From Alphaproteobacteria bacterium (lineage in GTDB: Bacteria > Pseudomonadota > Alphaproteobacteria > MPNO01 > UBA830), in contig OZ219791.1 of assembly GCA_964291215.2 (NCBI GenBank), forward strand, positions 320,001 to 384,000: a DNA stretch of 64,000 bases, in the 5' to 3' direction. Of this stretch, positions 3,960-63,373 are shown piece by piece. The notes beneath the pieces were generated by a model that was given only the letters and a program-made list of their open reading frames with translations, was not told the origin of the DNA and did not search any database. Made by a program: the position numbers and the translations under genes. Positions within the stretch are counted from its first letter, which is position 1; each line of letters opens with the position of its first letter.

Positions 3960-4095
3960 TGCGATTCCGAAAGCAGCTCGCAGCCCGGCAAGTTTCCGTT
4001 CGTGCGCCATAATAGCTCGAATCTTCGGGATATGGGCACCGGCGCGCCGCGGAGAGCCCGGGCCTTTCAACGAGCCATGATTAACTCGACGGTAT

Positions 4096-5270
4096 CTACT
4101 CACCCCTAGTTGGGTTCTGATTGGTCGTAGTGCTCGTTGATGATGTCTGCGGCTTTTCCGTCGAGGGCGATCTGGGTGGCGACGAGTGGGTTGTAGCCGA
4201 GTGCGGCCATGGAGGTGAGGTAGCTTGAGCCCCGGCACCATGCTTTTGCGTGGAGCGGAAGCATCCGGACACCTTGAGCTTTGCCATCCTGATCTTCTGT
4301 TCTCCGGCATTGTTGGTGAAGCTGACATCGGGGTCGTCTGTGAAGCGCAGGTTTTCGTGTTTCATGAGACGTTCGTGCAGGTTGTGCGCGTTTGCTATGC
4401 GTTTTCCTTTCGGCGGGATGTCGGGCAGTTCCTTGGCGCCCTGATGGTGCGGTAGCGCACGGCCTCGTTCAGGGTCCTGGATGCGCTCTTGTTGATCTTG
4501 TGGCAGACCTCGCGGAGCAGGCTCTTCATCAGTCGCGCGGTAGCCTCGACGACGAAGGTCAGTTCGCGCAGCAGGTGGCTGCCGCTGGTGGCTACACTGC
4601 CATGTACGAGGCCCAGGACGCCCTTGTAGCACGGGCCGATCTCTTGCTTGCGGTGCGGGAACTTGCACGTCCCGACGACATGGAGCCACTTGCTGTTGAT
4701 CCGAAATCGTCGACATCGGGCGTTGCAGGAGGTGCGCCACGGCGGCCTCCTCCCATGACGCATCGTGAAAGCATGGCCGAGGCCTCGGAGAGCTTGATGC
4801 CGGAGATCGCCTGCACGAGCGCGACGGCGCAGGGACAGCATTTGGGCGACCAGCAGGTTGATGACGAGGGCTTGGATGCCGTACTGCACGGGATGTTGTC
4901 GGGGAACCGGGCCTTGCACTTTGGGCATTCCTCGGCGTCGACGCGGCACGACCTCGAACACGATGTCGTGCGGCGCTCCCGATCGACGGGGTCGGCGCCG
5001 CAGGCGTCGCAGGCCGCGACCGTTTCCTCGACGATGGTCTTGCGCAGGTTGTCGCCCATCTGCCGGTTCGGCTTCGGGCCCTTGCTCCCGGCACGCTTCG
5101 CGCTCTCGTCCGTCTGTGACGGCGGCAGACCGGAGTTCCGGCTCGTGCGTGGTTTTCTCCAGAAGGACGACGATGAGGATGTCGAGGACGCGGATCACGG
5201 CCTCTTCCGACACCTTACCGGCCGCACGCAGCGCCGCAGCCTTGGCCGCTTCGAACTCCTCGCGCGCCGC
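4096..5270 (-). pseudogene. IS66 transposase, frameshifted
   Basis: IS66 motifs spread across several frames; boundaries approximate. Confidence 0.8.
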
Positions 5271-5279
5271 CCGTCGCCA

Positions 5280-5893
5280 TCACCCGGCCTCGCCGCGAGC
5301 ATCGCCCGGCGCTCACCCGGCGGCATCTTCCGGTACTCCGCCTTGCGCTTGATGCGCTGACGGTCCGTGCGGTTCCGCCCGGCATGGCTGGCCGAGTGCA
5401 TCCCCGCCCGGGCTCGAAGTTGAGCCACACCACCTCGGTGCGGACCCGGGGCGTCACCTGCACGACGATGCGGCGCCAGTCTCGCAGCAGGTCGTCGTAC
5501 AACGCCGAGGGGCAGCCCAAGACCATCGCCTGACACGGCAGCCCCTTGAGCAGTTCAAGGAGTTCGACATGGTCGGCTTCGGTGTAGTCGTGGCGGTATC
5601 GCCGCTTCGACCGGCGGGTCGCCTGCAGGGGTCGCTGCAGACCAGTTCCGTGCCCCGGAACGCAAGGCCGGCCAGGAACGCGTGGGCGCAGCCGTGGATC
5701 AGTTTCACCGGATAGTCGCACCCGAATCCGTCCAGCGCTCCCGGTCGATCCCGATAGAGCATGGCGCCGGCGCCTTGCGCTTCATCAGCGCGCCGCCTCC
5801 CGGATGCGTTTCCACATACAGATCATGCGGGGGCTGGAGCCCCGGAAGCAGCTGGCACAGCCCGCTCGTCGCTTTCGATCCAAAGTAGCCCAC
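5280..5893 (-). pseudogene. Dam-like (D12 class) DNA adenine methyltransferase inside IS66, frameshifted
   Basis: Stitched frames: VGYFGSKATSGLCQ..PPHDLYVETHPGGGALMKRK..IGID..ELVCSDP[PY lost]..YRHDYTEADHVELLELLKGLPCQAMVLG.PSALYDDLL..RTEVVWLNF. The YxGxK, E..GGG, DPPY-position and ExxWxN elements match Dam-type MTases. Confidence 0.75.
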
Positions 5894-6072
5894 TGGCGGT
5901 CCCCGTCGTTCTCGATGACCACCACTAAACGAATCAGCCTGCAGTGTCAAATCTCCACGAAAACCCGTTCGTTACTCTACCCCGACATCAAGCCGGAACC
6001 AGGGGGTGAGCAGTTACCAAAAATCAACGCATTCAATAGTGTCAGGTTGAAAGGCCCGGGCGACGGGCGCAG

Positions 6073-21084: not shown

Positions 21085-22989
21085 GTATTTCCTCCCGTAA
21101 ATCGGCGGTTGTCCGGACGGCTGAAGCGCCTGCCTCCGACGGACAGGCAGCGCGATGGAAACGCGGGCCGCTCTCGGCAACGTATCGTGCTGTCTCCGCC
21201 AATTCCTTAGATAGCAGACTTGGCGCGATTGGCAAGACTTCACCACCCAGGCGTTTCTCATGCTGCATTCAATTTTGCTGTCTTCTGCTGTCCGGAGGTT
21301 TCACAGCGTGCCGGGTTTTCTGGCTTCGGGGCCGTCCGCGGTCGTCGCCGACGGCGTTGCCGGCGCGTGGGCGGGATGTGGGCGGCGTCCGGGAATCGGC
21401 CGGACGCTATTGGCGCTCAGGGCTGCGACGGCTTCCCGGCGGTCGAGCCGCCGCCGTGTTTCGGCGAGGCTCTCGCGTCGGTTGGCAAAGATCACCGCGA
21501 GCGCGATGTTGTCGAGGCTGGCGCGGTTTGCGGGTCAGGCAGGCGTCCTTGCCGAAGACGCAGTCTCGGTGGTTCATGTTTTCCACGGCCCGCGGCCGCA
21601 GCAGTTCCTCTGGCGACGCGTGTTGCGCATCAAGCGAGGTGATGATGTATCGGTGCAGTCGTTACCGCTTGCTGCGCCGCTGGCGCTCTTTCTCAGCGGC
21701 TTGCGGTAGCATGCGGGCGATCTGCCGGGGTAGTTGATCAAGCCCTTGAGCGGCACGCGCTGCTCGAGGCGGGTCTTGCCTCCTTGAAGCGGCCGCTGGC
21801 TCCCAGTCGAAGGTTTCGGGCGCCCTTGACCGGGAAGACGTGGTCTGCGCCGCAGCGCCGGGTGATCAGCGTCGCCGGCGTCGTGCGGGTGATCACCTTG
21901 CCGCGGACATCGGTGCGCTCGAGGAGGTGGCCGCCAGCTCGCCGTCGTCGAAGTTCAACGGCGCGAAGGGTGCGCCAGAGGCGTGAGGGCCACGGTCTCG
22001 TGGTGGCGGTTGGCGCCGCGGATGCGCTTGCCGTCGGCGGCAAGCGCCCGGGCGAGCCCGCGGCCGAGCACATCCTCGATCGCCTCGGAGTCGACCGACC
22101 GGACGACCCGGTGGAGGGTCGTCCCGGAGGGCGGCTCGCGCAGCCCCGTCCTCGGGTTCTGCCGATGGCCCCGAGCTCGTCCCGGGACAGCGACCGCGCA
22201 GCTGCGAGGCAGCCTTTCATGTTCGCAAGCTCGGCGAGAACGTGAGCACACCGTGTGCTTCCTGCGCGGCGGAAGTCCTCGATCGCCGCCAGCTCGTCGT
22301 GCAGCGAACGCATCACTTCGGAACCCCGGGGAGCGAGGAGGCAGGCCACCGCAGCGCCTGCGACAGCAGCCGTCGCGCCGCACAACGAAAATCTCCTTGC
22401 CATGGGGGTCGGTGCAGCGCCCGTTGGCGCGGGCAAATCCCCTGGCACGCCAGCCCGCCGCCTTGTGCCCGCAAAACGCGCCGGATCGCAGAACGTCTCC
22501 GCCACCTAGTGGCCGCAGGCCCGGTCGTCGGCCAGCCGCGGCGTCGCAAGAAAGAAGGAGGCGAGGTTCGGAAACGTTCCCGGCGCCGCAAGCAGTCGCG
22601 TGTTGTCAGATCAAGCCACTCCTGCTCCTACTTCCAGCCACCGGTCGCGGCACTTGAAGGCCCCGGCCAGACCACTGCCCCCTGAAGGACGCAATATGGC
22701 GCAGCCTCGCCAGACAGCGAAACCCGAGATAGTCGTCCATCAACGCAGCGGACGCTCCTCAGGCTTCGCGAACCTCGGACAGACCCTTCCGGAGCTGCGA
22801 CGTGAATCGGACAGGACGCGATGTACCTATGAACCGACATCCCCGCACCATGACAACTCCAGTGCAGGAAAGCCAGCGAAAACTGTAAAAAAATCGTAAC
22901 TGCTCACCCCCTGGTTCCGGCTTGATGTCGGGGTAGGCAACGAACGGGTTTTCGTGGAGATCTGACACTGCAGATCGATTCTGTTAGTG

Positions 22990-23255
22990 TGAACTTCCTG
23001 GGCTGCCTCCGCCAAATCCTGATTCTGGTTGAATGTCACGGCCACATCGAGAGCGCCGTTGCGCGCGATTCGCACCATTTCGAGACCAATCCGAAGGTCT
23101 GTTTCTTTCTCGCGCTGTGCCGGCACATCATGCATCGTACCGTCCGGAAGCGGGACCCGCTCGGAGCGCGGTTTCCGGGATGTCACGAGAATCCCGACGC
23201 GGCTCATCGCGGTCAGGCACCGCGCCCGGCACGCCGGATCTTTCCTGGCGTCGGA
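22990..23255 (-). pseudogene. NYN/LabA-DUF88 (PIN-like) protein internal fragment
   Basis: QREKETDLRIGLEMVRIARNGALDVAVTFNQNQDLAEAAQEV resembles the EKxxD...SxDxD core of NYN domains; no start or stop of its own. Confidence 0.6.
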
Positions 23256-24024
23256 GTATCTCCTCACCCCTCCGCAGAGGCGGGTTTGGCGTTGTGCATC
23301 TTGATCATGTCGGCGGCGAGTGCGATCCGGATGGCGACGAGCGGGCTGTAGCCGAGTGCGGCCATGGAGGTGAGATAGCTTGAGCTTCGGCACCAGGCCT
23401 CGGCGTGGAGCCGGGTTCGGAAGCAACCGGAGACCTTGACCTTTGCCATCCAGATTTTCTGCTCGCCGGGATTGTTGGTGAAGCTGACGTCCGGGTCGCT
23501 CATGAAGCGCAGGACGGACTCTTCATGTCTTGCGAGACGCTCCCGGAGGTTGTGCGCGTTCGCAATCCGTCCGCGTTTTCCTTTCTGTCGGGGCGGGATT
23601 TCAGGCAGTTCCTTCGCCCCCGGGTCAGGATGGTCCGGTAGCGCTTGATGACGCTGTGGCGGTCGGCCTCGTTCAGGGTTTTGGATGTGCTCTTGTTAAC
23701 CCTGTGGCAGGCAGCAGTTTCTTCATCACGCGTGCCCGGCGGTAGCCACTGGCGCCGACGATGAAGGTCAGTTCCCTGAGCAGGCGGGACCCGCACAGCT
23801 GGTGGGTGCATTGATCGCAGGCCAGCCATGCGGCCCAGCAGTCGTGGACCAGCGTGCCGATGTAGCTGATGCCGATCTCCTCGATCGCCTGCCTGCCGCG
23901 CCTGCGATGCAGGAACTTGCACGTCCCGTCGGTGACGACATGGAGCGATCGGGTCCTGCCGTCGACCCGGAAGCCGGTTTCGTCGACATGCAGCGCCGGG
24001 CGTTCCAGCAGTTCGGCGATGCGG

Positions 24025-24411
24025 CCGCCAGTCCCGCAGCAGGTCGTCGTACAACGCCGAGGGGCGGCCCGAGACCATTACCTGACACGGCAGACCCAGT
24101 TCAAGGAGTTCGACATGGTCGGCTTCGGTGTAGTCGGGGCGGTACCGGCGGGTCGCCTGCAGGGGTTGCTGCAGACCAGTTCCGTGCCCCGGAACGCAAA
24201 GCGCGTGGGCGCAGCCGTGGATCAGTTTCACCGGATAGTCGCACCCGAACCCGTCCGGTGCTCCCGGTCGATCCCGATAGAGCGCCGGCGCCTTGCGCTT
24301 CATCAGCGCGCCGCCTCCCGGATGCGTTTCCACATACAGATCATGCGGGGGCTGGAGCCCCGGAAACAGCTGGCACAGCCCGCTCGTCGCCTTCGATCCA
24401 AAGTAGCCCAC
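24025..24411 (-). pseudogene. Dam-like methyltransferase remnant in IS66 copy 2
   Basis: VGYFGSKATSGLCQ..VETHPGGG..DYTEADHVELLEL..PSALYDDLLRDW, then joined by deletion to the middle of the transposase. Confidence 0.72.
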
Positions 24412-24863
24412 TGGCGGTCCCCGTCGTTCTCGATGACCACCACTGAACGAATCGGCCTGCAATGTCAAATCTCCACGAAAACCCGTTCATTACTCTACCC
24501 CGACATCAAGCCGGAACCAGGGGGTAAGCAGTTACAAAAAATCTCCTCGCACCAACCCGCGTCCCCGCAATACCCAGATTCTGCCCTGAAAAATCAAACA
24601 GAATTTAGCGTGAAAATTTCCTGCCGCAGGCCTCTCGCCGCACGCCTCGATGCACCGGTCCGTCAACAACCCCGCTGTTCCGGCAGCCAGCCGCGCAAGA
24701 AGCGCAGCTGCGCCCCCGGGCCGGAAACCCGCGGGCGATTCGCCAAAACGGTTCGAATTGCCCCATTATCCCGTCCATCAATCACGTGATCCGACCGTCG
24801 CGTCCGACAGTTTCGGGGCGGATTGGTGCGCATCGTTTTCCAACACCGCTGGCGTCCCGCAAC

Positions 24864-61867: not shown

Positions 61868-63373
61868 CTATCTACTCACCCCTTGTTGGGTTCTGATTCA
61901 TAGTGCTCGTTGATGATGTCTGCGGCTTTTCCGTCGAGGGCGATCTGGGTGGCGACGAGTGGGTTGTAGCCGAGTGCGGCCATGGAGGTGAGGTAGCTTG
62001 AGCTCCGGCACCATGCTTTTGCGTGGAGCGGAAGCATCCGGACACCTTGACCTTTGCCATCCTAATCTTCTGTTCTCCGGCATTGTTGGTGAAGCTGACG
62101 TTGGGGTCGTCTGTGAAGCGCAGGTTTTCGTGTTTCACGAGACGTTCGTGCAGGTTGTGCGCGTTTGCTATGCGTTTTCCTTTCGGCGGCGGCGGGATGT
62201 CGGGCAGTTCCCTGGCGCCCTGATGGTGCGGTAGCGCCCGGCGTCGTTCAGGGTCTTGGATGCGCTCTTGTTGACCTTGTGGCAGGGAGCAGGCTCTTCA
62301 TCAGTCGCGCGGTAGCCTCGACGACAAAGGTCAGTTCGCGCAGCAGGTGGCTGCCGCACAACTGATGGCTACACTGGCCCATGTACGAGGCCCAGGACGC
62401 CCTTGTAGCACGGGCCGATCTCTTGCCTCCCGGCCGCGCTTGCGGTGCGGGAACTTGCACGTCAGGGTCCCACGACATGGAGCCACTTACTGTTGATCCG
62501 AAATCCGGTCTCGTCGACATGCAGGGCTGAGCGTTGCAGGAGGTGCGCCACGGCGGCCTCCTCCCATGACGCATCGTGAAAGCATAGCTGAGGCCTCGGA
62601 GAGCTTGATGCCGGAGATCGCCTGCACGAACGCGACGGCACGGCGCAGGGACAGCATCTGGGCGACCAGCAGGTTGATGATGAGGGCCTGGATGCCGTAC
62701 TGCACGGGATGTTGTCGGGGAACCGGCCCCGGGCCTTGCACTTCGGGCATTCCTTGATCTCGGCGCGGCGCTCGACGACCTCGAACACGATGTCATAGAG
62801 GACGCGGCGCTCCCGATCGACGGGGCCGTCGATGTCGGCGCCGCAGGCGTCGCAGGCCGCGACCGTCTCCTCGACGATGGTCTTGCGCAGGTTGTCGCCC
62901 ATCTGCCGGTTCGGCTTCGGGCCCTTGCTCCCGGCACGCTCTTGTCCGTCTGTGACGGCGGCAGACCGGAGTTCCGGCTCGTGCGTGGTCTTCTCCAGAA
63001 GGACGACGATGAGGATGTCGAGCAGGATGACGAAGACGCGGATCACGGCCTCTTCCGCCACCTTGCCGGCAGCGCCGCGGTCTTGGCCGCTTCGAACTCC
63101 TCGCGCGCCGCCCGTCGCCATCACCCGGCCTTGCGCTTCATCAGCGCGCCGCCTCCGAGATGCGTTTCCACATACAGATCATGCGGAGGCTGGAGCCCCG
63201 GAAGCAGCTGGCACAGCCCGCTCGTCGCCTTCGATCCAAAGTAGCCCACTGGCGGTCCCCATCGTTCTCGATGACCACCACTAAGCGAATCGGCATGTAG
63301 TGTCAAATCTCCACGAAACCCCGTTTGTTGCTCTACCCCGACATCAAGCCGGAACCAGGGGGTGAACAGTTAC
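61868..63373 (-). mobile_element. IS66-family element copy 3, degenerate, with truncated MTase (63121-63249)
   Basis: Ends CTATCTACTCACCCC and (reverse) GTAACTGTTCACCCC; perfect 8-bp TSD CCACAAAC at 61860-61867 and 63374-63381; LHVDETGF, FTNNAGEQ. Confidence 0.9.

Follow-up and report, generated by a model that had tools for sequence, protein, structure and literature searches.

The IS66 lineage to which three decayed elements of the window belong carries, between its left end and its transposase, a gene related to upf31 of IncP-1beta plasmids and a palindrome that overlaps the promoter. By analogy with the plasmid gene, this pair is probably a portable autorepressor cassette that throttles the transposase coupled to it. 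The anatomy of the elements, the fold of the protein, its homology, and the conservation and swapping of the cassette are observed directly. The window is the whole stretch of 64,000 nucleotides that was analysed, G000:C2:320001-384000; its source genome (G000) has 6.15 Mb and a GC content of 64%.

Copies in the window and in the source genome

Elements of the IS66 family have terminal inverted repeats starting with GTAA and produce an 8-bp target-site duplication. Classical members are organised as tnpA-tnpB-tnpC, with tnpA and tnpB as accessory genes, while the ISBst12 subgroup has the single-transposase organisation. ISBst12 is named as a subgroup of IS66 in PMC8024623.

The three elements of the window (Table 1) all lie on the minus strand and have a common left end, GTAACTG(C/T)T(C/T)ACCCC. 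It is followed by a TTGACA box (at 5950, 24468 and 63306 in copies 1, 2 and 3, respectively), by the same ORF start (at 5893, 24411 and 63249) and then by remnants of an IS66 transposase, as a sequence-only reading of the window had described. That reading had also called all three copies broken, and indeed they contain deletions, a mini-ORF and transposase pseudogenes. In copy 1, the TGA of the upf31-like pseudogene overlaps the ATG of the transposase (TGATG); its promoter is predicted from the consensus and from analogy with upf31p. In copy 2, a large deletion fuses the upf31-like remnant to the middle of the transposase. The stop of the copy 3 mini-ORF still overlaps the transposase ATG. 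The DPPY motif is absent from every copy: copies 1 and 2 have a common 7-bp deletion at this place, and in copy 3 the 42-codon mini-ORF is all that remains of the gene. The short methylase-like fragments of the window were not recognised in a Pfam search.

Table 1. Features of the three family-A elements, in window coordinates
Feature	Position	Strand	Description
Copy 1	4092..6017	-	1926 bp, non-autonomous; family A with a transposase of type A1; lacks a target duplication
Copy 1 left terminal inverted repeat	6003..6017	-	
Copy 1 predicted promoter	5921..5950	-	-35 TTGACA, 17-bp spacer, -10 TAGTGG; degenerate family-A operator position
Copy 1 upf31-like (Dam-fold) pseudogene	5280..5893	-	interrupted by four deletions (6-15 bp), one of which has taken out the codons for DPPY
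Copy 1 IS66 transposase pseudogene	4107..5280	-	numerous 5-7 bp deletions
Copy 1 right terminal inverted repeat	4092..4106	-	
Copy 2	22896..24535	-	1640 bp; family A with a transposase of type A2; flanked by a perfect 8-bp target duplication
Copy 2 predicted promoter and degenerate operator position	24439..24468	-	
Copy 2 upf31-like remnant	24015..24411	-	5' two thirds, six short deletions; lower bound approximate
Copy 2 IS66 transposase remnant	23262..24014	-	3' half; HVDET, HDCW and TNN..E motifs visible; bounds approximate
Copy 2 inner end-like motif, type A2	23256..23270	-	homologous to the right end used by type A1
Copy 2 segment between inner motif and outer end	23006..23255	-	250 bp, open frame
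Copy 2 outer right end	22896..22990	+	left end repeated in inverted orientation over 95 bp, -35 box included
Copy 3	61868..63373	-	family A, type A1, dominant 1.5-kb deletion form, perfect 8-bp target duplication
Copy 3 predicted promoter and degenerate operator position	63277..63306	-	
Copy 3 mini-ORF	63121..63249	-	42 codons, left by an in-frame deletion of the upf31-like gene
Copy 3 IS66 transposase pseudogene	61883..63121	-	

Copies 1 and 2 match a full-length copy of the family with 91-93% identity over the left end and the ORF, whereas transposase types A1 and A2 have only about 68-72% DNA identity, which agrees with the earlier observation that copy 2 joins a different transposase to the same left module. 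The right end of type A1 reads GTAT instead of GTAA, a single change. Copy 2 had been recognised correctly as an element, but its end had been placed at 23256, which is an inner motif; the true extent is 22896-24535. Type A2 elements end in the old inner end, a captured 250-bp segment and an inverted left end, the last bringing a second -35 box that faces inward. The 250-bp segment of copy 2 has ten full-length copies in the genome and yielded no match in a Pfam search; it may resemble a fragment of an NYN domain.

The three copies had been singled out as a set, and while they are real, they are not special. The left end of this family, denoted here family A, has 239 BLAST matches in the genome; five are partial and were left out, and the remaining 234 complete left ends were analysed. 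At 104 of the 234, the first end motif found is accompanied by a perfect 8-bp duplication, and 66 have no end motif within 3.2 kb. This left end is the most abundant repeat in the genome, with a top 24-mer count of 181 against at most 66 for the other repeat families listed. A full-length methylase-like ORF is retained in only two of the 234 copies, and both of these elements are interrupted. An in-frame deletion that leaves a 42-codon leader, still coupled to the transposase, is present in 104 of the 234 copies, copy 3 of the window having this form; 12 further copies have leaders of 62-64 codons. The copies in the window are themselves ordinary IS debris.

The 114 elements of 1.4-1.7 kb, all of type A1, have a median pairwise identity of 96.9%, and no two are identical; a perfect 8-bp target duplication flanks 81 of them. 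Numerous deletions of 5-7 bp are common to most of the 114. The four-gamete test fails in 721 of 1421 indel pairs and in 2959 of 3388 SNP pairs, and this mosaic of deletions points to recombination between family-A copies. Since the copies are recombined mosaics, the order of events in the family cannot be read from them. Independent recurrence of the deletions at microhomologies was ruled out, as most of the 5-7 bp deletions shared among copies have 0-2 bp of microhomology. Similar deletions of 5-7 bp, as well as of 12-13 and 18 bp, are numerous in IS pseudogenes throughout the genome, including those at 4107-5893, 23262-24411 and 61883-63121 of the window. The mosaic deletions, mostly lacking microhomology, suggest an unusual deletion process combined with gene conversion among the copies.

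Among stop-free frames of at least 250 amino acids, the genome has no intact family-A transposase. The only near-complete IS66-like transposases found are three ORFs of 613-635 amino acids, at G000:C1:804519-808337 and C1:2092074-2093978. They are 26% identical to classical IS66 TnpC over 87-88% of its length and are possible candidates for helpers acting in trans; the dominant, gene-deleted subfamily has probably been copied in trans. We do not claim that loss of a repressor caused the expansion of family A. Repeats of at least eight copies account for about 20% of the genome bases, so the expansion of one family cannot be credited to such a loss when IS expansion in this genome is general; a causal role is also countered by another genome, which has 81 cassette matches with mostly intact genes.

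The source genome contains a second, better preserved family. Family B elements are 2357 bp long, and their protein is 75% identical to that of family A. Twelve promoter-bearing left ends and ten full-length ORFs containing DPPY were found, and a perfect 8-bp duplication was seen in seven of the eight uninterrupted copies tested. Compared to an intact relative, codons 1-216 of the gene are free of indels whereas the transposase has nine deletions (P about 0.04); the transposase scores 231.8 bits with NF033517 (cut-off 180). At least two further decayed IS families of this genome carry the cassette with G9-type operators (the operator positions are described below); they were observed at L004 and L005 (G000:C2:2408399 and C2:3133982), C1:1351434 and C1:1713993.

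The cassette and its transposases in other genomes

The genome collection yielded 311 confirmed relatives, of which the best 80 loci were kept, a set biased towards family B and towards multi-copy genomes. In 78 of these 80, an IS66 transposase lies directly downstream of the upf31-like gene. The gene is full-length in 77 loci, both frames are open in 69, and terminal repeats are present in 65, with a perfect 8-bp duplication around 50 of the 65 elements so bounded. The gene ends in GTGA in 76 of 77 cases, overlapping the open transposase frame in the junctions inspected, and in intact elements the gene, of 219-224 codons, either overlaps or abuts the transposase start. Metagenomes gave a similar picture: 54 of 67 loci are full length, and an IS66 transposase follows the gene in 49 of the 54, two of the five misses being loci that stop at a contig edge. 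Hence, as the sequence-only reading had proposed for its methyltransferase, the upf31-like gene is no stray cargo but a stable constituent of an IS66 lineage that has a single transposase.

Intact type A and type B elements have a length of 2.25-2.46 kb and are filled by the two ORFs, without tnpA and tnpB. The transposases of the intact A-type relatives (L096, L157) score 248.7 bits with NF033517, above the cut-off. No restriction gene fits inside the cassette-bearing elements, in agreement with the earlier remark that no restriction partner is visible. Thus, types A and B follow the single-transposase organisation of IS66 in having a DDE transposase, terminal repeats starting with GTAA and 8-bp duplications, and differ from it in that the transposase is preceded by an extra gene, which has a promoter and a palindrome of its own.

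A non-transposase gene between the terminal repeats of an IS66 element also recalls the transporter IS (tIS), which are said to be restricted to the IS1595 and IS66 families (10.1101/2021.05.26.445724). However, the promoter common to the gene and the transposase, the coupling and the gene's own operator make it look like a part of the element's control and unlike the independent cargo of tIS.

The cassette is uncommon. It was found in 10 of 61 related genomes (E <= 0.001) and in four of 401 genomes of the class (E <= 1e-60), the source genome counted. In one genome, it has 81 matches. For 15 pairs, dN/dS is 0.10-0.28 for the upf31-like gene and 0.11-0.37 for the transposase; the gene is therefore under purifying selection as strong as that on the transposase.

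Across transposase types, the gene is 58-75% identical, whereas the transposases are mostly 20-32% identical. Moreover, the family-A gene groups with the genes of type B elements, although its transposase is of type A. These observations, drawn from pairwise comparisons of identity and from two upf31-like protein trees, mean that the cassette has been swapped among transposases, and of the two histories offered earlier for copy 2, a link older than the divergence or an exchange of modules, the latter is the one borne out. In all, the cassette fronts four IS66 transposase types and one IS701 transposase.

Several individual loci deserve mention. A 3212-bp IS66 element with an 8-bp duplication (L191:665-3876, genome G037) has the upf31-like gene and tnpC on the same strand, with tnpA-tnpB in convergent orientation on the opposite strand, starting from the far end; it is the only cassette element with tnpA and tnpB, and its genome has 22 matches (E <= 1e-60). 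The IS701 element with the cassette (L255:1089-3625, genome G136) is 2537 bp long, has six matches in its genome, and has, upstream of its promoter, a small ORF of about 95 codons in divergent orientation. At L162:1050-2645, the cassette precedes an ORF of 532 amino acids, for which no convincing Pfam or NCBIfam match was found and which possibly represents another transposase type. An apparent pairing with IS21 at L097 was ruled out, as there the IS21 is inserted into the gene. Finally, near-identical family-B elements are present in one Dehalococcoidia assembly and in Alphaproteobacteria assemblies (L009, L012, L024, L026, L062), with dS of about 0.09-0.2 between L013 and L024, suggesting either cross-phylum transfer or mis-binning.

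The protein and its operator

Searches with methyltransferase profiles yield matches to the upf31-like protein that are below the respective cut-offs: TIGR00571 (dam) at E 2e-5 and 24.4 bits against 114.85, and PF02086 at E 0.035 and 14.3 bits against 22. In the sequence search DpnM is matched with E 0.5, and the family-A protein has no NCBIfam match. The AlphaFold2 model (pLDDT 84) has DpnM as its best fold match (Z 17.4 at an rmsd of 2.5, the alignment comprising 149 of 258 residues), followed by Dam with Z 16.7. The match is limited to model residues of about 1-167, which span DpnM 15-284, while helices 172-217 are extra. Since only residues 1-167 are covered, the helical target-recognition domain of Dam is missing; about 60 residues separate the SAM loop (31-34) from DPPY (90-93). 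Thus, in the model the Dam catalytic fold is present and the target-recognition domain is absent. The order of motifs is called beta by the authors who described Upf31 (PMC11997246), whereas our fold search points to a Dam-like order.

Motifs X, I, II and IV are near-invariant in 115 homologues: DPP, E28, G32 and G34 are present in all 115, and Y93 in 114. The protein has the same catalytic fold and motif order (Z 16.6-17.4), DPPY and glycine-rich SAM loop as the alpha-type N6-adenine methyltransferases Dam and DpnM (PF02086, TIGR00571). Unlike these enzymes, it has no target-recognition domain inserted between its SAM-binding motif and its catalytic one, its scores stay far under the cut-offs, and a basic C-terminal helical region is added.

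The one homologue that has been tested is Upf31 of the IncP-1beta plasmids (pBP136, R751; Elg et al. 2025). The family-B protein and the pBP136Km protein have 43% identity and 61% similarity (E 1e-63) over residues 1-217, the C-terminal region included. A plasmid search returned 196 records, including upf31.0 of IncP-1beta plasmids and pBP136Km; 139 of the records cover 80% of the query or more, conjugative plasmids account for 134 of the 196, and 95 phage records match as well. The likeness thus extends over the full length, from the methylase-like N-terminal domain to the C-terminal helices with the equivalent of W198, and includes a TTGACA promoter over which an inverted repeat of the form 8-N10-8 lies.

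According to its published description, Upf31 lowers the activity of its own promoter from 4.76 to 0.09 XylE units, and this self-repression needs the C-terminal helices, each of the substitutions Y180A, F185A and W198A abolishing it (PMC11997246). Its authors propose that Upf31 binds the inverted repeat at its promoter (PMC11997246). The same description reports no GATC methylation by pBP136 Upf31 in DpnI/MboI digestion and no SMRT-detectable methylation, even upon induction (PMC11997246). In our set of homologues, the equivalent of W198 is W in 114 of 115, position 181 (F185 of Upf31) is F in 89 of 115, and either Y or F occupies position 176 in 70 of the 115. In family B, all three residues are kept; family A has only the W, with H/H or H/R at the other two. 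Hence, in contrast to Upf31, the equivalents of Y180 and F185 vary in the IS-borne proteins. The IS-borne gene further differs from the plasmid one in being coupled to a transposase, without the KorB circuit, and in having a single operator with half-site (C)ATAG in place of repeat clusters with CATCG.

For analysis of the operator, 149 promoters were dereplicated at 90% protein identity, leaving 43. All 43 have TTGAC at 56-72 bases ahead of the start. A palindrome, ATAG-N10-CTAT, overlaps the -35 and -10 boxes and is conserved across the set: positions 9-12 pair with 26-23 in 81-98% of the promoters, and A11 and G12, which lie in the spacer between the boxes, are invariant, as is A25, the -11 base (43/43). 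The centre of the palindrome, 10 bp long, is variable, with no more than 0.41 bit at any position. As the right arm coincides with the -10 box, only the left arm is independent evidence.

A scan of 18 elements placed one palindrome in the promoter of each and none in the terminal repeats; two of the scanned loci have one further match away from the promoter. The palindrome is thereby ruled out as a marker of element ends. The suggestion that the element gates its own ends by methylation finds no support either, as the conserved site lies in the promoter and not in the ends.

Upstream of the plasmid and phage homologues, 19 sites were found at a spacer of 10, compared to 0-5 at other spacers. 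The spacer-10 palindrome is present in nine of these 11 loci, and absent from two phage loci. Individual homologues (L248-L254, L089-L092) are preceded by one to three N10 palindromes. Their half-sites are CACAG, CATAG and CATCG, so these palindromes extend the IncP-1beta repeats to other mobile elements.

Residue 181 seems to vary together with the operator. In the set of 43, residue 181 is non-aromatic in four sequences, and these four, and no others, have G9. When further loci are included, all ten non-aromatic sequences, from four lineages, have G9 or C26, and the exceptions, both with F181, are L255 with G9 and L147 with C26. The kin are not independent and represent only about four lineages, and thus this covariation is suggestive, not statistical. 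Family A of the window, with H or R at 181, belongs to the G9 group, its operator position being degenerate and poorly symmetric.

Control of the transposase

Binding, dimerisation and repression inside an insertion sequence are carried over here from plasmid Upf31. The left-end promoter would drive one transcript for the upf31-like gene and the transposase. A dimer of the upf31-like protein would bind the palindrome via the basic C-terminal helix, around residue 181, and, once bound, would block RNA polymerase and limit the transposase. Given such repression, a newly arrived element would be briefly unrepressed and then shut down, and resident copies that have an operator in common would restrain one another. 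In the source genome, the dominant subfamily has lost the gene in frame. Several observations count against autorepression. The analogy is drawn from a homologue with 43% identity; the residues for catalysis and SAM binding are near-invariant, although a pure repressor could do without them; the intact gene does not hold the copy number low in the genome with 81 matches; and the operator position of family A itself is poorly symmetric.

The near-invariant motifs and the Dam catalytic fold leave some room for an active but very narrow methylase, or for a SAM-sensing switch: a dimer on the palindrome would methylate an adenine, for example A25, setting the transposase promoter epigenetically on or off. 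We consider this possible though unlikely; it would add to autorepression and not replace it. The invariance of A25 fits it, but is already expected from the -10 box, and the mutations that abolish Upf31 repression lie outside the catalytic domain (PMC11997246). As for the negative digestion and SMRT results, the latter were obtained in an E. coli strain with an expression vector and not with the repeat-bearing plasmid (PMC11997246), so that a rare bipartite target could have been missed.

The earlier interpretation, a solitary Dam-like methylase, here widened to a promiscuous one in the manner of Hia5, that protects against restriction, marks the ends or rewrites the host methylome, is improbable. 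Its Dam-like part is sustained on the intact relatives with respect to homology and fold, and the intact catalytic motifs, the weak profile matches, the occurrence of homologues on conjugative plasmids and phages, and the existence of non-specific Dam-related methylases, the Hia5 family of Mu-like prophages (PMC3299994), are all consistent with it. A working methylase is another matter: the recognition domain is absent, and so is the region that Hia5 has in its place (residues about 80-170; PMC3299994), and Upf31 methylated nothing detectable even when induced (PMC11997246). Neither restriction protection nor methylome rewriting is supported, the conserved site is absent from the ends, and a solitary methylase does not predict a conserved operator and a residue covarying with it.

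Least probable is retention of the cassette mainly as a portable promoter and translation-coupling leader, the gene activity being minor inside the IS, for which the leader-only forms of family A and the free swapping among transposases could be cited, but the former are uninformative about the autonomous element because their transposases are dead, the protein is under purifying selection as strong as the transposase, and the family-B gene is intact while its transposase has decayed.

We thus return to the autorepressor cassette. Both of its components have precedents: IS66 elements with passenger genes form the named class tIS (10.1101/2021.05.26.445724), and Upf31 has been described on plasmids (PMC11997246). 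Our search of titles and abstracts found none on an IS66 element with an upf31-like gene. Simple insertion sequences are not generally known to carry a dedicated repressor gene of their own.

A broader and rather doubtful generalisation is that Upf31-like proteins are widespread methylase-fold transcription factors, forming a plug-in control cassette of IS66, IS701, plasmids and phages. The palindrome would be read by the C-terminal helix, residue 181 setting specificity groups; the active site would methylate the operator or sense SAM, tying transposition to the methylation state; and in-frame deletion of the gene would let a family multiply to hundreds of copies.

With one operator and the covariation at residue 181, the cassette offers a minimal system for studying the target of Upf31 and the reason why its catalytic site is kept. 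If the autorepressor model is true, transposases unrelated to each other have come under a portable brake made from a methylase fold, and thousands of proteins annotated as 'DNA adenine methylase' (3691 homologues at E <= 0.001) may be regulators.
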